IMG/VR virus record: IMGVR_UViG_2706794688_000013
Strand: one strand, 5' to 3'
DNA from: a virus
Lineage: Duplodnaviria > Heunggongvirae > Uroviricota > Caudoviricetes
DNA length: 9,660 bases
A program made the position numbers and the translations under genes. Below, one piece after another: positions 1 to 9,425 of this stretch (position 1 is its first letter; every line of letters starts with the position of its first letter). The notes beneath the pieces were generated by a model. That model was not told the DNA's origin, ran no database searches, and saw only the letters and a program-made list of their open reading frames with translations.

Positions 1-90
1 GAACAGGAGGGACAGCTGATAGAAACAGAAGCCACTGGAGCACCTCAAAAACACCATCATACACTAAATCAGTAAGTTGGCAGCATCACC
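1..90 (-). mobile_element. IS1 left end (terminal inverted repeat plus the first codons of insA), truncated by the window edge
   Basis: The reverse complement of 1..90 reads GGTGATGCTGCCAACTTACTGATTTAGTGTATGATGGTG...GCTTCTGTTTCTATCAGCTGTCCCTCCTGTTC, which I recognise from memory as the IS1 left terminus running into insA (MASVSISCPSCS...). The element boundary is at position 90; unrelated sequence starts at 91. Confidence 0.85.
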
Positions 91-242
91 CCGCCACAGA
101 ACAATTATTGCTTTTGCCGTTGATGACAATAAAGTTTTTATCGCAGGCGTATACCACGGTGGGCAAATCTATGAAACCGATTTTTTATCCAGTGCACCGT
201 AAAACCCCCATCCTTCAGGGCGTGGCGGATATCAAACTTTGG

Positions 243-1325
243 TCATTTTCTCTGGCTGATCTTTACCGGATAACCATCCCGAAGATCAATTAAGTGCTCC
301 GGTTCAGAAGCAAACCATGCATAAGATCCCCACGCCAATTCTGGTATTGCCTTTTTAAAAGGCAGAGCACTTCTGTCCATAAATGCCGTAAGGAATGCAA
401 GATTTTTCTCGCTGAACCCAGCGTCAATAGCCAAATGAGTGAGAGTAACTTTTCGTTCCCTGTTTATAGGCCCATCTGTCGCAACTACTTCAGTGAAAAC
501 TACAAGCATGTCCGAACCCGTTCGGTCCTCTCCCAAATCAATCAAAATAATATCTGGAAGTGCTTTTGAGGCATCAATATTCAGCCCCAATGCTTTTGCC
601 AATACATCATCCTGAGCAACAACTTTATTCCCGGATTCAGACAACCAGAGCACAGTTGGATTCTTAAGAAAATTAGGAGCAAAAACTTCGATGACGGCCT
701 TAGCTATTGTACTTGACGGGCCCGGAGCTAAAGTTCTCTTCTCTCCATTTGGGAAAGTGACGACTACGGCATCAGCAGCAATCACTGCCCCTGATTTCAA
801 TAAACGCAACCTAGCAAGAGCGGCTTTGTTCAAATGATTTTCTTGCCAGGAACTTATTGCACTCAGCAGCGAATCTCCTTCAAGCCCGGCATCAAAGAGT
901 GCTGCAAAAGAGCGATTCAAACTGTAACGAGGACGAGAGGATGTGGTGGGTATACCTTTACGCTCAACAATTGCATTGCAAGGTATTAGGCCATTTTTTA
1001 TAGTTTCATCACGTATTGGCTCACGCGTATTTTCCGCATACCATGCATCAGCAGGCCTTATCTTTTGTTTAGAGAAAGTCATCTTTACCCAGCTTTCTCT
1101 GGACGCATCATCAGTAAGAGCAGCCTGCGAATCTCCCATACTTACAACCTGGCTGGGCCTTATCCATCGCCCCAGCCCCTCAACCGCACCAGCATAAAAC
1201 ATGACAAAAATTGTTTTTGCAGCTATTTCCCGAATTAAATATCCACGATTCTCAGTCCCTTCAGGGAAAATTAATTGTAATCTTTCCCGGATAACATTCA
1301 ATGGGGGAACAACAGGCAGATTCAT
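243..1325 (-). CDS. Putative Type II restriction endonuclease (BsuBI/PstI-like, tentative)
   Basis: 360-aa ORF whose ATG (1325..1323) overlaps the TGA of the upstream methyltransferase in an ATGA arrangement, indicating translational coupling. Stop TGA at 245..243. The family assignment rests on operon context and my recollection of BsuBI/PstI-family sequences; no catalytic motif was verified. Confidence 0.55.
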   Translation of the reverse strand: MNLPVVPPLNVIRERLQLIFPEGTENRGYLIREIAAKTIFVMFYAGAVEGLGRWIRPSQVVSMGDSQAALTDDASRESWVKMTFSKQKIRPADAWYAENTREPIRDETIKNGLIPCNAIVERKGIPTTSSRPRYSLNRSFAALFDAGLEGDSLLSAISSWQENHLNKAALARLRLLKSGAVIAADAVVVTFPNGEKRTLAPGPSSTIAKAVIEVFAPNFLKNPTVLWLSESGNKVVAQDDVLAKALGLNIDASKALPDIILIDLGEDRTGSDMLVVFTEVVATDGPINRERKVTLTHLAIDAGFSEKNLAFLTAFMDRSALPFKKAIPELAWGSYAWFASEPEHLIDLRDGYPVKISQRK

Positions 1326-3154
1326 GCAATCATCACTCCATAGAAACCAGCGATAGTTCTCTCAATAATCCGTCTGTGGACGCCAGCATCAATTAACGAT
1401 TGAATCTCCATCACCTGCTCCAGAGAAGGCAACGGGATTGAATTCAATTCATAGGCCGAAACAGCAACACTTCCGCTTATACACCTGAACGCCCGATCGA
1501 CAACATGCGAATTAAGTAGCATATCAATAACATCAGGGCGAACCGCAGAGAACAATCCGTTTGAATATACAATATTAATATGGTTTTCAACTACTACGCC
1601 ACCAGTTTCATCTATAAATCCCTGAGGTAAAATTGCCGCTAAAATCCTTCTGTCCTGTTCCTTCGATGTTGTCCGCTGAACAAGCACACATTCAGATTTT
1701 GTCACAAGGAAACCCTGTTGTGGGGTTATATCGATATAGGGAACATGATTTTTTCTGTCTGCACTAAAACGAAAACCAGCTGAAGTTATTGATTCCGCCC
1801 AGACTAATGGGTAGCTATTTTTTCCTTTCGTCGTACGCAACTGCGACTTAAATCGATTCCAGACTAACTGACCTGTAGAGACTGAGTATCCCAGATCAGC
1901 TAAACGCGTAGACATCTGTTTTAATACATTAAGAAAACAGGCATCATCTTTAACGCGTGGCAAAAGCCACGTTGCTCCACCTTTTTCTATATCAACATTA
2001 CCTATTTTCTCAATTTTTGCTTTGTTCAACCCCTTAGGGACAAGTGAGGATACCTGGGCCCGAACTTTATGTTCTCCCGCCTTGAATGCTGTCAACATTG
2101 TTTCCTGGAGAACATCGTCAAAGACCCCATCCCTGTCAGTGACGAAATCAAGGGCATACGGAGTAGTTTTTTCGGTCAAAAGGGTTCGCAGCGCGGTGAA
2201 ATACTGCCCACCAAGAAAAGAAGTTGGCGTAAGAAATGCAATAACTCCTGTTTTCTCTTTAACCATGCGAACAGCTAAGTCGGTGAACAATCCATATAGA
2301 TTTGCATGACCAAATAACGAACGAGAATATTTTTCTCTCGTTTTAATATCGAGAGTGACACGTCCGTAAGGCGGATTCCCTACCACAAGATCATAACCAG
2401 AAAATTTATCTTGCTGAAGCGCATCAGCAACAATAATTGTATCTTCAGGCAATCTACGTTTTACCTTTACACATAGTGGCATTAGTACAGATTCGAGCAA
2501 TACCAAACTCATCCAAGCCGCAAATGGATCGATCTCTATCCCCTTTAAACGACGACTGATTCTCCTCAACATCCATTCAGGGGAAGACCCCTTGTCTTTT
2601 TTTAACATTCGAATGGCTACTGGTGCCAAAAATGCACCGCCACCACACGCAGGATCAATAACCGATGCATGAGAAAAATCAACACCAGACTTTTCAGCCA
2701 GGTCCAAGAGACGCGCTACCAAAGGTGGGGGGGTATAGTAAGCCCCCAATTCCGAACGGTAAGCGGATGGCAGCATTACCGTATAAATTGACCCAATCAG
2801 ATATCCAGCGTCCTCCGCCGGAAATTGAGCAATAAGCTCACCTGTTCGTTCAGCGAGCTCGCGTGCATCACATGGAATGTCTTCTATGTAAACAGTGTGC
2901 GGTACTGCCCTCATTTTAATGCTGCTTTTTTGCTTTTTTGCAAGGGTATCCCAATATGCAGCTACGATGCTGAAGCAGTATGAGCGGGCATGCATCAACC
3001 TTGACTGCCCGGTTTTGTAATTGCCCGCATAACCTTTGGCCATGGCTTTACAAGTTTGATATCTTTCCAGATTAGAAAACTCATTATCTGTAAAAAAATC
3101 AAAATGTTGCACATTCATAATGTAAAATCCTAATGTATCAAACATGCGGGCCAT
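1322..3154 (-). CDS. N6-adenine DNA methyltransferase (gamma-class amino-methyltransferase)
   Basis: 610-aa ORF with motif order X (ELGAYYTPPPLV), I (VIDPACGGGAFLAP, the AdoMet-binding loop) and IV (VVGNPPYGRV, the NPPY catalytic motif), followed by a long C-terminal region consistent with a target-recognition domain. The start could be 3154, 3145 or 3118; the ATG at 3118 has the best Shine-Dalgarno (TAGGAT). Confidence 0.85.
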   Translation of the reverse strand: MARMFDTLGFYIMNVQHFDFFTDNEFSNLERYQTCKAMAKGYAGNYKTGQSRLMHARSYCFSIVAAYWDTLAKKQKSSIKMRAVPHTVYIEDIPCDARELAERTGELIAQFPAEDAGYLIGSIYTVMLPSAYRSELGAYYTPPPLVARLLDLAEKSGVDFSHASVIDPACGGGAFLAPVAIRMLKKDKGSSPEWMLRRISRRLKGIEIDPFAAWMSLVLLESVLMPLCVKVKRRLPEDTIIVADALQQDKFSGYDLVVGNPPYGRVTLDIKTREKYSRSLFGHANLYGLFTDLAVRMVKEKTGVIAFLTPTSFLGGQYFTALRTLLTEKTTPYALDFVTDRDGVFDDVLQETMLTAFKAGEHKVRAQVSSLVPKGLNKAKIEKIGNVDIEKGGATWLLPRVKDDACFLNVLKQMSTRLADLGYSVSTGQLVWNRFKSQLRTTKGKNSYPLVWAESITSAGFRFSADRKNHVPYIDITPQQGFLVTKSECVLVQRTTSKEQDRRILAAILPQGFIDETGGVVVENHINIVYSNGLFSAVRPDVIDMLLNSHVVDRAFRCISGSVAVSAYELNSIPLPSLEQVMEIQSLIDAGVHRRIIERTIAGFYGVMIA

Positions 3155-3368
3155 AACATCTCATGGTGGCGCATAGCAAACTGGCCCGAAGAATATCACG
3201 CACCAAGTCGATCTCATAACCCGTTATGACAATAAATCTTTGTAGCTGAACTCACTTGGTGATTTGTCAATCATTCCTGGCCTCCAGTTCGTCCTGAATC
3301 TCTTTATCGAGTTCACCGTATTTGTTAGTCCTCATCACTCACGACTTGACTTCCAGAAATAACCTTGA

Positions 3369-3725
3369 TTATTCGGGGCTATATTTTGTCACCCTGCGTA
3401 TCCGCGCTTTCGCATTACGCTCAATCTGGATTAGCTTTTCTATATTTTTTCGCCTTTCCCGCTCCTCCTGGCGCAAGAGCCTTACATCATCTGCCAGTCT
3501 GGTTTCTCTTTTCGCCACAGAGAGCATCCAGTCAAATGGCTCCACAACTGCACCGCAAATTTTACAGCGGACCTGACGCTCTTTTTCGTCAACCCGGACA
3601 GAAGCGTGATGGCAATATGGTCTTTCCGATGGCTCATAAAGAAAATTAACCTGATTACGAGGGTTATCCTCTTTTACCGGAAATAAAACAATATTGCTTA
3701 ACTCATCTTCTGGTTTTATTTCCAT
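3369..3725 (-). CDS. Hypothetical phage protein with a Cys/His cluster (zinc-ribbon-like) and a charged C-terminal helix
   Basis: The ORF track starts at a GTG at 3782. The ATG at 3725 is preferred because it is preceded by AAAGGAGAGGAGC. Contains YCHH...x16...CKIC followed by an Arg/Glu-rich segment. Function unknown. Confidence 0.5.
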   Translation of the reverse strand: MEIKPEDELSNIVLFPVKEDNPRNQVNFLYEPSERPYCHHASVRVDEKERQVRCKICGAVVEPFDWMLSVAKRETRLADDVRLLRQEERERRKNIEKLIQIERNAKARIRRVTKYSPE

Positions 3726-3782
3726 GCTCCTCTCCTTTGATGCGAATGCCAGCGGTAATTGAAGCCTGATAGCTAATTTCAC

Positions 3783-4205
3783 TCACAGTACCGCCTCCTG
3801 AAAATCACCCTGATAGAAAGCCGGTACACGCTGCATAACTTCACTCTTCCGGCACTCGCGACAGATTATGTTCTGATGTCTGTCGTAGCGGCGTATTTCT
3901 CCGTCCGGTAATGACCAGATAAGGTCCGGATCAACCACAGATGGTTTCTTCAGCTTTGCCCTCGAGAGTTTTTTGCGGGCGTTTTGCCAGTCCTTACGAG
4001 CCTGTTCAGACGGGAATAACCCGTAGCCAGAGTTGTATACATCCCCACTGGCAACCAGCTCTCTGGCGAGAACGCTTATTAAATATCTTGTCGCCCCGGT
4101 TTTAGCTTCCAGTTGTCGTAACGTCTCGCGCCCACTCTGGCGTACGAGTTCAACAACCTGCCCCTTAATTTTTTCCCGCTCTTCCTGTGTAAATACTTTT
4201 GCCAT
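3783..4205 (-). CDS. Hypothetical phage protein
   Basis: The ORF track starts at a TTG at 4220. The ATG at 4205 is preferred (upstream CGGGGGCGCTT; 15-nt gap after the stop of the upstream gene). Has a C-terminal CRECRK motif. Same strand and tightly packed with its neighbours. Confidence 0.5.
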   Translation of the reverse strand: MAKVFTQEEREKIKGQVVELVRQSGRETLRQLEAKTGATRYLISVLARELVASGDVYNSGYGLFPSEQARKDWQNARKKLSRAKLKKPSVVDPDLIWSLPDGEIRRYDRHQNIICRECRKSEVMQRVPAFYQGDFQEAVL

Positions 4206-4220
4206 AAGCGCCCCCGGCAA

Positions 4221-4946
4221 TCACTTTTCCGACACAATACGACCGGAGGAATCGACAATCTGTCGAACAATATCCCGGTGCTTGTTCAGCTCCCGCAACG
4301 CGGCGCAGACACGCTCCCACTTCTGGACATGACTTTTCGCCCGACGCAGTTCGCGGTTTGCCATATGCAGCGATGGTAAAACCAGGTCATCCGCTTGCGT
4401 TTCGGTGAACGATGGCAACGACTGCACAATGTCCGCCACAGTTTCTGTTTTAATTTCTTCCTGTGTTGCAGCTTCCTGTACCGGTAACGCAACACCTGCT
4501 GGCTGAGGAAAGACTTTACCATCCGTTTCCGCTATGGATGCGGCTTTCGGCTCTGCCGGTAAATCAGCGCCCGGTATGCAGTACCGAAATTTACCGCCCT
4601 GATTCACGCGAATCAGACGCCCTTTGCTGATTGCCATGGCCAGCGATGAATTCGCCCGGCGGGAGGTAATCCCGAACATCAGTGCCAGCTCATCCGCCGT
4701 TTGTGGGCCATGTTGTTCAATCGCCTCAGTCAGCATTTGCGCTGTCACTTTCGGTACCGGTGACACTGGTTCACTTTCACCAGCCTGAATCAGCCACCAC
4801 ATCGAACCCTTGTTATCCGCTTCACCACGGCGCTTCAGTTTCCACAGTTCGTTGACCGCATCTTCACGGCTGATTCCAAGGCGGGACGCCACCACATGTG
4901 AAGAGGCTCTTTTCAGTGCTTTCAGTGCGTCAAATACAGTTTCCAT
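4221..4946 (-). CDS. Hypothetical phage protein with two winged-helix-like segments
   Basis: ATG at 4946 is preceded by GGAGGA with a 7-nt spacer; the ORF track's TTG start at 4964 is less likely. Two similar segments ([25 protein letters not shown] and [27 protein letters not shown]) suggest a tandem HTH or winged-helix fold. Lies immediately downstream of the DnaC-like gene (stop 4968..4970). Confidence 0.55.
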
Positions 4947-4967
4947 TAAAACATCCTCCAACAAAAA

Positions 4968-5479
4968 TTACTTCACAACTCCCGGAAAGCTGACATTTGA
5001 ACGCCAGCTATCCCAGTTAAACGTCACCCACCGACAACCGTTCATGGTCATGCGGTCCATAATCCTCTCACCAAGAAGCGTGCTCATTGCGGCATGATTC
5101 AGGTTTGTTAACATCCCGACACTGCACAGTGATGCTGTCCGGCGATCAATTATCTGGTGCAATACCACCTGCTCGTTTTTCGTCTCCCGCTGAATGCCTA
5201 TTTCATCCAGGACCAGCAAATCAACCCCGCAAAGCTCCTGTAAAAATTTTTCACCGGATTTGCCGTTGTCGTAGCTGTCATGCAACACGCTCATGACATC
5301 AGACTCGGTGACGATAATCACGCTGCGCCCCTTCGCCATCAGCCGGTTACCCATCGCCGCTGCAAGGTGATTTTTCCCGGTGCCGGTTTTACCGCTGAAC
5401 ACAAAATTCGTGCACCCGGTCATCAGTTCGTCAGCTATGGATTTGGCCTGGCTCAGCGCGTATTTTTGCCCGTCGTTCT
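4968..5479 (-). CDS. DnaC-like helicase loader (AAA+ ATPase); 5' end lost in the N gap
   Basis: Walker A FSGKTGTGKNHLAAA and Walker B LLVLDEIG motifs in the expected order and spacing for DnaC/IstB-type loaders. Only the C-terminal part is visible; the N-terminal part lies within or beyond the N run. Confidence 0.85.
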
Positions 5480-5732
5480 NNNNNNNNNNNNNNNNNNNNN
5501 NNNNNNNNNNNNNNNNNNNNNNNNNNNNNNNNNNNNNNNNNNNNNNNNNNNNNNNNNNNNNNNNNNNNNNNNNNNNNNNNNNNNNNNNNNNNNNNNNNNN
5601 NNNNNNNNNNNNNNNNNNNNNNNNNNNNNNNNNNNNNNNNNNNNNNNNNNNNNNNNNNNNNNNNNNNNNNNNNNNNNNNNNNNNNNNNNNNNNNNNNNNN
5701 NNNNNNNNNNNNNNNNNNNNNNNNNNNNNNNN
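5480..5732. other. Assembly gap (253 N)
   Basis: Uninterrupted run of n. The X-containing ORFs reported across it are reading artefacts. Confidence 0.99.
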
Positions 5733-6742
5733 CAACGCTGGTTGTTCGTGCCGCTTACCGGGAGCAACCAGGGGTTTTCAAAATTCCGGTCCGGCCCAAA
5801 AAACGTCGTCGCTCGCTGAACAAATTCCGTTCCCGCTTTCCCGGTCGCCGCCAGGTATCTCGCGTAACGCCTCACACCATCCAGCATGGTCTCTGGTGGC
5901 ACCCCCTCGCGCAATCTGGCCTTCCAGGCACTGAATGCGGATTTCTTCGGGTTTGCCCCGGCACGCAACGGGTATTCCCGCCAGACCTGTTCGAACACAT
6001 CCGGATAATCCACTCGTCCCACAGGCTGCCCGGTGTTTTCCGGGGCTACCCGATCGGCTTCCCGCTGAATGGCGGAATCGGCTTCAGGCTGCTGCAGTTG
6101 GAGTGATTGCTCCGGCCTTGCGGTCATCACCTGCTGCACAGCGCCCGAATCGGCTTTCAGCGCATACGCTGAATCGGCTTCCGGTGTCGAGCCTGCTGGC
6201 TGACCAGGATTGACGGTCTGAACATCCCCTGCCTGGTTCGTGGCGTTTTTTACGCCATGGACCATAGTGTTTTGATCTTCTTTATCTGTATCTTTATCTG
6301 TATCTGTCGTGACTCGTCGTGACATGTGCGTGACATTTCGTGACGCGCCGTGACAATCGCCATTTTGTTCCCGCTTTCTTTCCCTCTCTCGCTGCGCCCT
6401 CTTGCGCTCTGCAGGAGATTTTGCGGTTTGCGAAATATTGCCGTTGTCCTCTTTAAGCACCTGGCGTTTTTCCCATCCAGTGATTAAATCACCATCAAGT
6501 ACCCGCCCCTGCATCGTCTGCAAAATTGAATCAATTACCTCTTCTGTCACGTCGAGCGCACTTGCCAAATCTTCTGTCGTGACATCAATGTGACCTCGCG
6601 TGACATTTCGTGACGCGCTCACCAGGAGGTGGATATACACTGCCATCACTGTTGCAATTGGCTGCCCTGACACCCTGGCAATTGTTCGCCACTTAGGGTC
6701 ATTTGGCATGTCATGCCATAATCTGAGCCAGGCGTTAGCCAT
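5733..6742 (-). CDS. Phage replication initiator / replisome organiser (lambda O-like); 3' end lost in the N gap
   Basis: ATG at 6742 is preceded by GAGGTGA. The C-terminal visible part has the W..YP.....K..A...W motif (VWREYPLRAGANPKKSAFSAWKARL) that I associate with phage replication proteins. The gene contains the iteron arrays. Gene order (Cro-like, YdaT-like, this gene, DnaC-like) matches Rac-type early-right operons. Confidence 0.7.
6280..6303. repeat. Perfect 12-bp tandem duplication (CTTTATCTGTAT x2) in an AT-rich stretch
   Basis: Read directly: 6280..6291 equals 6292..6303. It lies inside the O-like gene, where it encodes a TDKDTDKED repeat, immediately next to iteron cluster 1. Confidence 0.8.
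6308..6354. repeat. Iteron cluster 1: five CGTGAC hexamers phased at 10-11 bp
   Basis: CGTGAC at 6308, 6318, 6329, 6339 and 6349, about one per helical turn. Confidence 0.65.
6578..6614. repeat. Iteron cluster 2: four (C/T)GTGAC hexamers phased at 10-11 bp
   Basis: Hexamers at 6578, 6589, 6599 and 6609, plus an inverted copy GTCACG at 6546..6551. A 21-bp stretch (6598..6618) is identical to 6328..6348 in cluster 1. Confidence 0.65.
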
Positions 6743-6813: not shown

Positions 6814-7239
6814 TCAATGTACTGCCACAGCATTTCCTGCCGGGCCACCACGGTTCATCTGATTGAAACCGGCGATTGCCACTGCGACAAAATCATCAGC
6901 GTCTCTCACCAGTCGTTCATGCGTCTCCACCAGTTCCCGAAAATAAGCTGAACTGTGGCTGCGCATTCGAGCCACCAGCGGAGGTGGCATTGCCCTTTCG
7001 ATCGCAGGTAACAACGCCTGAATTTTTTCAACAGCGTCAGGGGTGTCTTTATCCAGCCAACGGAAAATCTTTTGGGTGTTGAGATAAAGCGTGTTGTGCT
7101 TGCTGTCGTTATGCAGAACCGGAAACGTCATTCCCAGTTCGAAATAAACCCTGGTTATTTCAGCTGCCGGAACTTTTTCACCGTCCGGATGCGCCCAGGC
7201 TTTCATCGCCATGCGGATGTGTTCATGCTTGATTTTCAT
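6814..7239 (-). CDS. YdaT-like protein (Rac-prophage family; proposed CII-like regulator)
   Basis: 141 aa beginning MKIKHEHI, which I recall as the N-terminus of E. coli Rac YdaT. Its ATG (7239..7237) overlaps the TGA of the upstream Cro-like gene (ATGA), and GGGGG lies upstream. Confidence 0.65.
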   Translation of the reverse strand: MKIKHEHIRMAMKAWAHPDGEKVPAAEITRVYFELGMTFPVLHNDSKHNTLYLNTQKIFRWLDKDTPDAVEKIQALLPAIERAMPPPLVARMRSHSSAYFRELVETHERLVRDADDFVAVAIAGFNQMNRGGPAGNAVAVH

Positions 7240-7499
7240 GAATCAACCCCCGCCGATGGTTGTGTGTTAGCCTGAAACTCAGCAGGCAAGCCGTCAGTTG
7301 GGTTGGGGTAGGTTTTACTGTCAATCTCATGTGGGGTCACCACCCATCCCGTTGCTTCACACCAACGTAATATTTTTTCTCCTGTAAGTTTTGCACGCCC
7401 CGTTATAACGTGGCTGACCATCCCTTGGGATGCGCCAACAATCTCAGCAAATGAACTCTGGGTTATATGAAAATGATGCAAATATTCTCCAAGATTCAT
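7236..7499 (-). CDS. Cro/YdaS-like HTH regulator
   Basis: ATG at 7499 is preferred over the ORF track's TTG at 7526. HTH-like segment QSSFAEIVGASQGMVSHVITGRAKLTGEKI. Transcribed divergently from the repressor gene and first in the replication operon. Confidence 0.6.
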   Translation of the reverse strand: MNLGEYLHHFHITQSSFAEIVGASQGMVSHVITGRAKLTGEKILRWCEATGWVVTPHEIDSKTYPNPTDGLPAEFQANTQPSAGVDS

Positions 7500-7535
7500 A
7501 ATCCGCCCTATGTGATGTGTTACCAATGCATAATT

Positions 7536-7575: not shown

Positions 7576-7610
7576 TCAAAGTGATTAGCAATCTTATTAG
7601 AATTGGATGT

Positions 7611-8111
7611 ATGAAAAGAAAATCATTGTCAGACACCGACCTCAACGCCGCCAGAAGACTGAAAGAAATCTGGATGGCAAAGAAATCTCAGTTGGGATTG
7701 ACTCAGGAACGTGCGGCGGAAATTATGGGGTTTTCAACACAAGGGGCGGTAAGTCACTACCTAAATGGTCAAACCCCACTAAACCTTGAGGCTGTTCTAA
7801 AGTTTGCTGGCTTACTGAAAGTTCCCCCTGAGTCAATCAGGCCAGACATGGTAGATTTGCTGCAAATTGCAAGGATGTATTGTCGAGAACCACAGCAAGA
7901 TAACATAGTCGCATTACCAGCAGACACAGAACAAACAGAGGATGAACTACCGTTTGCCGTAGAGCCGATGGAACGAGATTTAATCCATACGTTCAGAGCT
8001 TTTCCGAAAGAAGATCAAGAACACATGCTTCAGGAGATGAAAGATAAAAAAGAATCAATGGATCGTACGGTTGCGCGGTGGTTAGCTGCACAAAAAGGCC
8101 GTCGCGCCTAA
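7611..8111 (+). CDS. HTH (XRE-family) repressor; candidate immunity repressor and/or PaaR-like regulator of the downstream toxin-antitoxin pair
   Basis: ATG at 7611 is preferred over the ORF track's start at 7581. N-terminal HTH (LTQERAAEIMGFSTQGAVSHYLNG). No Ser-Lys peptidase (LexA/S24-like) C-terminal domain is recognisable. Divergent from the Cro-like gene. Confidence 0.7.
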   Translation: MKRKSLSDTDLNAARRLKEIWMAKKSQLGLTQERAAEIMGFSTQGAVSHYLNGQTPLNLEAVLKFAGLLKVPPESIRPDMVDLLQIARMYCREPQQDNIVALPADTEQTEDELPFAVEPMERDLIHTFRAFPKEDQEHMLQEMKDKKESMDRTVARWLAAQKGRRA

Positions 8112-8130: not shown

Positions 8131-8325
8131 ATGAGTACAGTCCTTTCCCCAATGGTTTCAGAATTTGAGACAGTTGAGCAAGAAAATAGTTACAACGAAT
8201 GGCTGCGGGCCAAAGTAGCAGCAAGCCTCGCGGATCCCCGCCCGGCGATTCCGCATGATGAGGTAATGGCGGAAATGGAACAAATTATTGCCCAAATTGC
8301 TGCTGCAACTCACAGAGGTGAATAA
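8131..8325 (+). CDS. Small antitoxin (PaaA/ParD-like)
   Basis: 64-aa acidic protein directly upstream of a ParE-like toxin, with a 1-nt stop/start overlap (TAATG). Shine-Dalgarno GAGGA lies 10 nt upstream. Confidence 0.65.
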   Translation: MSTVLSPMVSEFETVEQENSYNEWLRAKVAASLADPRPAIPHDEVMAEMEQIIAQIAAATHRGE

Positions 8326-8615
8326 TGTTACCCGTTTTATGGCTACCATCTGCTCGTGATGATTTGCGCCAGATCGTAGCCTACATAGCTAAAGAAAATC
8401 CCGCGGCAGCACGCAGAATGAAAATTCGAATTGAAACATCCGTTTTGCCGCTCACAGAGCATCCTTACCTGTATCCTCCAAGCGAGCGAGTTCTTGGTCT
8501 TCGTGAAATTGTAACTCATCCTAACTACATCATCCTTTACCGAGTAACAGCATCAAGCATAGAAGTAGTAAATATTGTGCATTCTCGAAGACAGTATCCA
8601 GGCAAAAACAGTTAA
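8325..8615 (+). CDS. ParE/RelE-superfamily toxin
   Basis: 96 aa with the ParE-like pattern: N-terminal W..SARDDLRQIVAYI, then PYLYP...GLREIVTHPNYIILYRV, then VVNIVHSRRQYP at the C-terminus. Coupled to the antitoxin. Confidence 0.75.
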   Translation: MLPVLWLPSARDDLRQIVAYIAKENPAAARRMKIRIETSVLPLTEHPYLYPPSERVLGLREIVTHPNYIILYRVTASSIEVVNIVHSRRQYPGKNS

Positions 8616-8714: not shown

Positions 8715-8895
8715 GTTTCAGGCGTCAACCCACCCCGCCCCACAGAATGCAGGGCAATACTTCGAGTTACCAGACAGTGGTCAGGGGTTAAGTAGCCAGC
8801 CCGAGGCGTAAGAACATGACGGCAGGGTTCAATCTTTAACTATGCAGCAGGTTTTTTGTTCCGCCACCCCGGCGTTAAGGGGAAATGAGGTCAGC

Positions 8896-9048
8896 ATGGA
8901 TACTATCGATCTTGGCAACAACGAATCTCTGGTGTGCGGCGTGTTCCCTAACCAGGATGGAACGTTTACCGCCATGACGTATACCAAAAGCAAAACGTTT
9001 AAAACCGAATCTGGCGCGCGTTGCTGGTTAGCCAGAAACACTGACTGA
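8896..9048 (+). CDS. Small hypothetical prophage protein (50 aa)
   Basis: ATG at 8896 with GAGG 5 nt upstream; the ORF track's upstream extension has no ribosome-binding site. The sequence MDTIDLGNNESLV... resembles small proteins I associate with Rac-type prophages (YdaF-like), but that is from memory only. Confidence 0.5.
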   Translation: MDTIDLGNNESLVCGVFPNQDGTFTAMTYTKSKTFKTESGARCWLARNTD

Positions 9049-9059
9049 TGAGGCTGACG

Positions 9060-9425
9060 ATGGAATTTAAAGATTTACCGTCTGATGTACAGAAAACAGC
9101 AGCTCATACATTGCATTCTGTGCTGCGAGAAATCGGGAAAGATATTGCAAGCGAGCCAGCAAAAGATCTGGCCCGGAAAATCAAGACCGCTTTCGTTGAG
9201 CTTTATAATGTTGGCACTGACTCTGAAACTGTCGAGACCAAGACCGTAAGTTCACCAATATTCTCACTTGAGCCAAGCGTATTATCAGGTGAAATATGCA
9301 CCGAGATTTCCAGCGAACTGCTTCCGGTAATACGAGAAGCAATTCGCCGTCGCGGTTTGGATGGAAGTTATGATCATGACGTTCTGCAAGTTCTCAGGAC
9401 AATGGTGACTTCACTGGGGATTTGA
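9060..9425 (+). CDS. Hypothetical protein (about 121 aa)
   Basis: ATG at 9060 is preceded by GAGG with a 6-nt spacer; it follows the upstream gene's stop (9046..9048) by 11 nt. No recognisable motif. Confidence 0.5.
   Translation: MEFKDLPSDVQKTAAHTLHSVLREIGKDIASEPAKDLARKIKTAFVELYNVGTDSETVETKTVSSPIFSLEPSVLSGEICTEISSELLPVIREAIRRRGLDGSYDHDVLQVLRTMVTSLGI

Follow-up and report, generated by a model that had tools for sequence, protein, structure and literature searches.

In phage lambda, the gene order O-P-ren places ren first after the replication genes of the rightward early operon. Mutants in ren were reportedly found by Toothman and Herskowitz in 1980 to be sensitive to Rex exclusion. The gene is transcribed from pR together with O and P and is described as 'likely involved in DNA replication', and in two-hybrid assays both Ren and O were seen to interact with Rex proteins (bioRxiv 10.1101/2021.04.19.439022). 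It is non-essential (PMC10695390), and the N-terminal part of its product has been described as a winged helix. The second described relative of the genes studied here is YdaW (b1361) of the Rac prophage of E. coli K-12, a DUF1627 protein whose gene is placed after ydaV. In an overexpression screen, ydaW was found among the prophage genes that block RcaT, the toxin of retron-Sen2 (bioRxiv 10.1101/2020.06.22.160242); this is the result of one screen, obtained with the truncated K-12 YdaW rather than with the allele described below. Our literature search on LygF, DUF977, DUF1627, YdaW and Ren returned no functional study besides those cited, which agrees with the original prediction that genes of this kind have no experimentally characterised function.

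The DNA analyzed here, a stretch of 9,660 nucleotides (the window), contains three genes between a gene for a DnaC/IstB-like helicase loader and a PstI-type restriction-modification (R-M) pair, and the surrounding DNA is a lambdoid prophage of the Rac/Qin type from E. coli or Shigella. The genes are ORF1 (4221-4946, 241 aa), ORF2 (3783-4205, 140 aa) and ORF3 (3369-3725, 118 aa), all on the minus strand, as are the domains and motifs located below. That they form a close-set, same-strand group with ribosome-binding sites was confirmed by the list of open reading frames and by the sequence: ORF1 starts at an ATG with GGAGG 8 nt 5' of it, ORF2 is preceded by GGGGG and ORF3 by AAGGAGAGGAG, while 15 nt separate the stop of ORF1 from the start of ORF2 and 57 nt the stop of ORF2 from the start of ORF3. 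The preferred starts likewise match both the positions at which homologues begin in alignments and the RefSeq annotation of the closest genome. Judged by their Pfam and PHROGs scores, ORF1-3 are real genes and no chance reading frames. Between positions 3000 and 5100, neither strand has a promoter-like site, and the coding (minus) strand is also free of terminator-like sites. An Rfam scan of the region gave no match and a repeat scan nothing notable; NCBIfam holds no family for the three proteins, and sequence searches of the PDB with each of them gave no match.

The original prediction held that the three genes could not be assigned to any characterised family from sequence alone. However, Pfam and PHROGs place them in DUF1627/YdaW, DUF977/LygF and phrog_1621, respectively. 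ORF1 matches Pfam DUF1627 (PF07789) with an E-value of 3.9e-93 and 309.8 bits, compared to a gathering cut-off of 28.1, as well as phrog_630 (1.8e-121), and it shares 99% identity with a Shigella sonnei 'DUF1627 domain-containing protein'. Its identity to K-12 YdaW is 57% over residues 1-139, where the alignment ends, and like ydaW it is located after ydaV, here directly 3' of the loader gene. An AlphaFold2 model (mdc0b13e08098), built on a shallow alignment and with a pLDDT of 64, predicts two winged-helix domains, both covered by the identity to YdaW. The first comprises residues 1-52 (4791-4946) with helices at 4-11, 16-23 and 27-39 and a pLDDT of 70-81 in this block; it also gives weak matches to MarR/Crp helix-turn-helix (HTH) profiles. 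The second comprises residues 68-124 (4575-4745) with helices at 69-79, 84-91 and 95-107 and a beta hairpin at 112-123 (pLDDT ~80-85). Foldseek searches with the model returned MarR/ArsR winged helices and the tandem winged-helix proteins ScpB and DIP2311 with a best E-value of 1e-3, and nothing beyond generic winged helices. Thus the duplicated winged-helix segments proposed from the sequence are supported by both model and structure search. The domains are followed by an acidic linker that is predicted to be disordered (residues 125-183, 4398-4574; pLDDT 31-49, calculated pI 4.05) and by a long, predicted basic C-terminal helix (residues 184-240, 4227-4397; pI 9.8). K-12 YdaW, in contrast, is truncated and lacks both linker and helix. 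We also considered ORF1 as a paralogue of Ren, which was rejected given an hhalign E-value of 0.013 at 3% probability and a negative BLASTP comparison; any kinship to Ren beyond the winged-helix fold is not significant at the sequence level.

ORF2 in turn matches Pfam DUF977 (PF06163) over the entire profile (1-134 of 134; 2.6e-30, 105.7 bits, gathering cut-off 22.1). It further matches phrog_142, 'Ren-like exclusion protein', with 2.3e-46, a match that covers residues 6-144 of the 145-aa version starting at TTG and positions 1-115 of 116 of the profile. Lambda Ren itself matches the same profile (1.6e-41), but goes undetected by Pfam DUF977. Since it falls into the PHROG of lambda Ren, ORF2 is, as far as profile matches can define it, a Ren-family protein, and its relatives in phages are annotated either as LygF or as Ren-like exclusion protein. 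Taken together, the labels used by RefSeq and in phage records are DUF1627, DUF977, LygF and Ren-like exclusion protein. The N-terminal regions of both proteins can be aligned, and close to the C-terminus they share the motif N-[IL]-[IV]-x-x-E-C-R-x-S-x-x-M-x-R-[VI], which in ORF2 (residues 112-133, 3807-3872) reads N-I-I-C-R-E-C-R-K-S-E-V-M-Q-R-V...G and was found by BLASTP with 10 of 20 residues identical (E-value 1e-5). Invariant across the alignment of ORF2 and Ren sequences are N112, E117, C118, R119, S121, M124, R126 and G133. The C-terminal CxxC noticed earlier is thus present in ORF2 as C115-x-x-C118, but only C118 is conserved throughout the family while lambda Ren lacks C115, which excludes a family-wide metal site. 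Other aspects differ as well: ORF2 comprises 140 aa, lambda Ren 96 aa, the overall identity is ~27%, and ORF2 is extended by 10 residues at its N-terminus and has ~27 additional, basic residues inserted between the Ren-like N-terminal region and the motif. The designation 'lygF' is a mere locus name in Salmonella genome announcements and derives from the Sdf region of Salmonella Enteritidis.

ORF3 belongs to phrog_1621 (1.8e-54). Its homologues form 150 clusters from Enterobacterales, every one of them annotated as 'hypothetical', and a profile search at E<=1e-3 extends the family to 1,656 representatives, mostly small stand-alone proteins. The Cys/His cluster followed by a charged helix that had been recognized in the sequence is borne out by alignment and AlphaFold2 model. 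A putative zinc ribbon, C38-x-H40 ... C54-x-x-C57 (3555-3614), has its four ligands invariant among 32 homologues down to 43% identity, and two beta hairpins are predicted at 43-46 and 51-54. In ligand pattern and predicted hairpins it resembles a zinc ribbon. The match to the Pfam TFIIB zinc ribbon (PF08271) reaches 21.1 bits, which is below the gathering cut-off of 29 bits, and a Foldseek search of the model against the PDB gave nothing significant, only zinc-ribbon fragments with a TFIIB ribbon as best match (E-value 0.38). Residues 63-115 (3381-3539) are modelled as a single basic helix of 53 residues (pLDDT 86-94, pI 10.9) with the near-invariant stretch LRxEExxRRxNIEKLIQIERNAKARIRR; its invariant positions are L84, R85, E87, E88, R91, R92, I95, K97, L98, I101, E102, N104, K106, R108, I109 and R110. 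We describe ORF3 as a small putative zinc-ribbon protein with a basic, coiled-coil-like helix, from a large unnamed phage family. Lambda NinH and Rac YdaE were considered as relatives of ORF3, and sequence comparison was negative for both.

To place the three genes in context, their nearest relatives in IMG/VR were surveyed, 80 for each gene; since these relatives were not dereplicated and neighbors were called by tblastn, the locus frequencies given here are rough. The gene directly 5' of ORF1 codes for a helicase loader in 64 of 65 loci, namely DnaC-like YdaV in 30 and a lambda-P-family protein in 34. In all 76 loci anchored on ORF2, the gene directly 5' of it is either ORF1 (36) or a replication gene (40), just as ren follows the replication genes of lambda. 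The proposed location, in the 'ren/nin' slot of the early-right operon of a lambdoid prophage, is therefore borne out by synteny with the replication genes. Homology to nin-region or replication-accessory proteins in conserved synteny, which the original prediction had named as evidence against a new accessory module, was for the most part found, at the frequencies given above for ORF1 and ORF2. Taken together, we hold it to be probable that ORF1-3 are independent delayed-early genes of a rightward (pR-type) operon that occupy the variable 'ren/nin' slot after the replication genes.

If so, the three proteins would be made only upon prophage induction or phage infection, alongside the replication proteins. 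ORF1 and ORF2 would be non-essential helpers that bind DNA or proteins at the phage replication complex or in its vicinity. Most likely they would serve to keep abortive-infection systems of the host or of resident prophages from firing on phage replication, as lambda Ren does against RexAB and as K-12 YdaW reportedly did against RcaT in one screen. ORF3 would work apart from them and would probably be a dimer that binds nucleic acid or a host protein through its helix. By analogy, non-essential helper proteins of the lytic cycle, possibly with an anti-exclusion function, are the most likely role; an anti-defence role of ORF1 and ORF2 is what we infer from lambda Ren and from the one YdaW screen match.

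A more far-reaching scenario could be envisioned, which we regard as possible, yet rather unlikely: the slot behind the loader gene might be a hot-spot of alternative small winged-helix or HTH anti-defence proteins, with ORF3 as founding member of a family of host-takeover proteins. Interchangeable occupants of the slot may then be Ren, DUF977, DUF1627 and a protein of ~120 aa with two HTH motifs, and each may hide the phage during its replication from another abortive-infection sensor, such as RexAB, retron toxins or others. ORF1 and ORF2 may accordingly both be anti-defence proteins, and the ORF3 family with its >1,600 clusters may comprise zinc-ribbon/helix host-takeover factors of phages.

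Still less probable, in our view, is that ORF1 and ORF2 are replication accessory factors which tune initiation by binding to the origin or to the loader-helicase complex, without any role against host immunity. Their invariant place after the last replication gene, irrespective of two unrelated loader types, fits this idea, as do the winged-helix DNA-binding folds predicted for ORF1 and described for Ren (PMC2686095) and the wording on ren quoted above (bioRxiv 10.1101/2021.04.19.439022). However, in many related prophages ORF1 or ORF2 is missing or the slot is occupied by another small HTH protein, and lambda ren is dispensable (PMC10695390). Furthermore, the sole recorded phenotypes are anti-exclusion for Ren and toxin blocking for YdaW.

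The trio had originally been described as a three-gene cassette, and one might speculate that it constitutes a single defence or anti-defence operon whose products cooperate, perhaps together with the adjacent R-M system. The genes are indeed closely packed on one strand, with no promoter-like site and no minus-strand terminator-like site between them, and in 45 of 70 loci a close relative of ORF3 has ORF2 immediately 5' of it. However, every combination was seen, and single genes as well as pairs are common: loci anchored on ORF1 contain ORF1 alone (17), ORF1 and ORF2 (13), ORF1 and ORF3 (9) or all three (7), and those anchored on ORF2 contain ORF2 and ORF3 (21), ORF2 alone (12), ORF1 and ORF2 (12) or all three (10). 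In other genera ORF3 occurs without a DUF977 or DUF1627 neighbor. There, its homologues are nin-region genes, comparable to those for lambda NinB to NinH, and overlap the stop codon of NinG, RusA, YbcO or NinH (Erwinia, Yersinia, Phytobacter, Enterobacter, Leclercia and others), with a Q gene following directly in two such loci (L091 and L102). The homologues in other Enterobacterales are translationally coupled to NinG, RusA, YbcO or NinH. In addition, the Stx phage ArgO145 carries a 95%-identical copy of ORF3 in the opposite, early-left operon, after ead/Ea22. ORF3 is thus a gene that recombines into several places. A few database proteins fuse parts of ORF3 with DUF977, DUF1627, Ea22 or Q, which at first sight argues for a functional link. 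However, such fusions form rare clusters of one to few sequences in inverted or truncated order; hence they are apparently recombination scars, and we rejected them as evidence for functional linkage. A search for fused domains in longer members of the ORF3 family gave only Ea22 and weak DUF6118 matches.

The defence-related evidence points in the same direction. Against PADLOC-DB 2.0, ORF2 and ORF3 gave no match at E<=1 and ORF1 one weak match (SWIM_XIII, E-value 0.0032, 14 bits), while the neighboring methylase and endonuclease matched strongly; none of the three genes fits a PADLOC defence model. The adjacency to the R-M system, noted at first, turned out to be incidental. The pair lies 3' of ORF3 in 4 of 80 ORF3 loci, and it begins beyond a break in homology: in blastn comparisons of window positions 1-3800, similarity starts at 3354, 3365 and 3369 in three relatives without the pair (L003, L261 and L264), which sets a module boundary at 3354-3368, just past the stop of ORF3. 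Only one relative, L001, continues in similarity past this boundary, and it carries the same R-M pair. The R-M pair is thus rare cargo, the three genes assort independently of one another and of this pair, and we consider a cooperating operon very improbable. That ORF3 or ORF2 is a C-protein-like controller of the downstream R-M operon is the least credible idea: the methylase gene does lie immediately 3' on the same strand and ORF3 resembles a small nucleic-acid-binding protein, but the distribution already contradicts it, with no R-M pair downstream in 76 of 80 close ORF3 loci, the small gene HP1 as the usual next gene (53 of 70 loci), the homology break at the ORF3 stop and a family of 1,656 representative clusters that are mostly stand-alone.

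We conclude that the three genes are common, separately shuffled prophage accessory genes of already known families and no new defence cassette. As a discovery they carry little weight, as the annotations of thousands of E. coli and Shigella genomes already include near-identical proteins and the genes are arranged in the mosaic that is standard for Rac/Qin-like prophages. Their families rank among the commonest prophage genes of E. coli, at roughly 31-75% of complete genomes: among 5,426 such genomes, similar DNA was found for ORF1 in 2,396 (44%), for ORF2 in 4,051 (75%) and for ORF3 in 1,679 (31%). Both existing hints on function, Ren against Rex and YdaW against RcaT, point to counter-defence during phage replication.

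ORF1 (4221-4946, 241 aa), ORF2 (3783-4205, 140 aa) and ORF3 (3369-3725, 118 aa) are consecutive minus-strand genes that belong to families already known, and it is well supported that they do not form a cassette. They lie in a Rac/Qin-type lambdoid prophage, of which the window covers the immunity and early-right region as judged from the ORF list and Pfam, NCBIfam and PADLOC scans. On the minus strand they are preceded by a Cro/DicC-like gene (7236-7526), a YdaT-family gene (6814-7239), a YdaU-like replisome organiser (to 6748) and a DnaC/IstB-like helicase loader (4968-5735). Between 5480 and 5732 the sequence consists of 253 N, which cover the organiser/loader junction and mask part of the loader, so both ORFs are readable only in part. 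Downstream follow a 214-nt gap (3155-3368) and the minus-strand genes of a type II methylase (1322-3154) and a BsuBI/PstI-family endonuclease (243-1325), the R-M pair. The plus strand carries the repressor gene (7581-8111), directly followed by a RelB antitoxin (NF050103, 3.3e-27) and a RelE/StbE toxin (8131-8615), an order also found in related prophages. Beyond these, 8842-9425 encodes a DUF1391 protein (PF07151, 3.3e-28), followed by a 125-aa ORF without a family match. FDAARGOS_943 was the closest complete E. coli genome (96.8% identity), with the same layout but without ORF1. Across these genes, contigs in IMG/VR are identical to the window, and a Shigella sonnei record contains the ORF1 protein at 99% identity.

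The three ORFs are separated by 15 nt (ORF1-ORF2) and 57 nt (ORF2-ORF3). A purine-rich ribosome-binding site precedes each ATG, and these starts coincide with the points where homologue alignments begin. The tight same-strand packing first read from the sequence is confirmed. In 3000-5100, neither strand showed a sigma-70-like promoter, and the coding strand showed no terminator-like site; three weak stem-loop matches on the plus strand were within chance expectation, and Rfam gave no match in the ORF1-ORF3 region. The missing promoter and terminator sites fit read-through transcription from the early-right promoter.

By its sequence, ORF2 is a Ren-family protein. It covers the entire Pfam DUF977 profile (2.6e-30) and matches PHROG 142, 'Ren-like exclusion protein' (2.3e-46), the same PHROG that was retrieved by lambda Ren, encoded directly after P, when scanned likewise (1.6e-41). 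Both proteins share a C-terminal motif, NIICRECRKSEVMQRVPAFY in ORF2 and NLVFKECRQSAAMKRVLAVY in Ren (pairwise BLASTP, E 1e-5), while N112, E117, C118, R119, S121, M124, R126 and G133 are invariant in a seven-sequence Ren/DUF977 alignment. In this alignment, DUF977 proteins read as Ren plus a few extra N-terminal residues and a basic insertion ~27 residues long. The C-terminal CxxC of ORF2 is present as predicted, but as a metal site it is unlikely because its first cysteine is not conserved in Ren. LygF and 'Ren-like exclusion protein' are its names in phage records, and profile methods gave DUF977 a winged-helix fold (PMC2686095).

Matches to Pfam PF07789 (3.9e-93) and phrog_630 (1.8e-121) identify ORF1 as a full-length YdaW/DUF1627 protein; YdaW of the Rac prophage in E. 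coli K-12 is 57% identical across residues 1-139 but lacks the remainder. With a shallow alignment behind it, the AlphaFold model (mean pLDDT 64, domains 70-85) predicts winged helices at residues 1-52 and 68-124, an acidic disordered linker (125-183) and a C-terminal basic helix of 57 residues. Foldseek hits to this model were winged helices of the MarR/ArsR type and proteins with tandem winged helices, among them ScpB (best E 1e-3), and the suspected duplication of winged-helix-like segments is thus borne out. ORF1 was rejected as a Ren paralogue, since profile-profile comparison with the Ren family was not significant.

ORF3, judged by homology, is a member of an unnamed family. It matches phrog_1621 (1.8e-54), and the 150 homologue clusters found are all 'hypothetical' proteins from Enterobacterales. 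Homologues down to 43% identity all keep C38, H40, C54 and C57, and the helix stretch LRxEExxRRxNIEKLIQIERNAKARIRR is near-invariant in them; the predicted structure (pLDDT 77) shows a small ribbon and then a single helix (63-115), in agreement with the zinc-ribbon-like Cys/His cluster and charged helix proposed initially. Comparison with the PDB, by fold and by sequence, gave nothing significant, and NinH and YdaE proved unrelated. Searching 1.84 billion representatives with a profile gave 1,656 relatives at E<=1e-3, mostly stand-alone proteins of 100-190 aa that share the (N/D)-V-V-x-F-P motif at the N-terminus as well as the ribbon and the helix; longer members contained no informative domain.

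The identities of all three proteins are well supported. The observation behind the original prediction was confirmed and its interpretation supported in part: families exist for all three genes (DUF977/Ren, DUF1627/YdaW, phrog_1621). Megablast against 5,426 complete E. coli genomes found similar DNA in 2,396 (ORF1), 4,051 (ORF2) and 1,679 (ORF3), often multicopy per genome. ORF3 copies 93-94% identical to the E. coli gene in a MAG labelled Collinsella (L089) and a 233-nt Ursidibacter contig (L096) are most likely contaminating E. coli prophage DNA in these assemblies.

The idea of a three-gene cassette did not survive a survey of the 80 closest IMG/VR loci per gene (not dereplicated, neighbours located with tblastn), in which every combination was seen, neighbour calls being dependent on a small reference set. 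Within 2.5 kb, ORF2 occurred with ORF3 in 21 loci, with ORF1 in 12, with both in 10 and alone in 12; ORF1 was alone in 17, with ORF2 in 13, with ORF3 in 9 and with both in 7. Directly upstream of ORF2 lay ORF1 (36) or a replication gene (40) in all 76 loci, and directly upstream of ORF1, among 65 loci, a DnaC-like YdaV (30) or a 221-aa protein (34) of the lambda-P family according to Pfam. In many prophages (L113, L120 and others) DUF977 is replaced in the slot downstream of DUF1627 by a ~120-134-aa protein with two HTH-like repeats, containing …GRSEAAVRTKARELGI… and …RREIARKFGMPLRTVNNYV….

ORF3 occurs elsewhere as well. In a cross-species sample (one genome per species, 20 loci), its homologue overlaps the stop codon of NinG, RusA, YbcO or NinH in Erwinia, Yersinia, Symbiopectobacterium, Phytobacter, Enterobacter, Entomohabitans and Leclercia; none of these loci has DUF977 or DUF1627 beside it, and in two (L091, L102) a Q gene follows directly. 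Stx phage ArgO145 has a 95% identical copy in its early-left operon, placed after an ead/Ea22 gene and followed by HP1 and HP2, the small genes usually found 3' of ORF3 in the right operon. ORF3 travels with this block of very small genes (HP1 183 nt, HP2 177 nt; ArgO145 locus L264 3501-4505, L002/L003), which, being sited after either DUF977 or ead/Ea22, therefore moves between the two early operons. Rare database proteins, in clusters of one to few sequences, fuse ORF3 with DUF977, DUF1627, Ea22 or Q in inverted or truncated order. Such chimeras (P0039, P0041, P0061, P0006, P0013, P0036), which pair the N-terminus of ORF3 with the C-terminus of a DUF977 protein, couple Ea22 or DUF1627 with ORF3, or give ORF3 a DUF1133 Q-like tail, are probably scars of illegitimate recombination between prophage modules.

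The R-M pair lies 3' of ORF3 in only 4 of 80 loci, and the match to prophages without it ends at 3354-3369, just beyond the ORF3 stop. This PstI/BsuBI-family pair (243-3353, minus strand) represents a rare cargo insertion; a simple scan found no consensus promoter in the gap upstream of the methylase gene. A ParE/RelE-type toxin gene, present with its 3' end (77-202, plus strand), faces the endonuclease gene as in FDAARGOS_943, in which ParD/ParE comes after the R-M pair; DNA at the ArgO145 toxin gene shows 83% identity to window 91-188. A defence module, the other option raised, is disfavoured: no PADLOC defence model matched ORF1, ORF2 or ORF3, and the lack of a consensus promoter argues against the lysogen expression that a defence gene would need.

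Mutants in ren are reportedly sensitive to Rex exclusion, as described by Toothman and Herskowitz in 1980. Lambda ren lies on the pR transcript with O and P and was called likely replication-involved, and in two-hybrid tests Ren and O interact with Rex proteins (bioRxiv 10.1101/2021.04.19.439022); ren is dispensable (PMC10695390). K-12 ydaW was among the prophage genes that block the retron-Sen2 toxin RcaT in a TIC/TAC screen (bioRxiv 10.1101/2020.06.22.160242). Our reading, whose mechanistic part is an inference, is that the three proteins are separate, non-essential helpers of the lytic cycle. Most likely, ORF1 and ORF2 would act at the phage replication complex or close to it and keep abortive-infection systems from firing, and ORF3 would work independently through its conserved basic helix.
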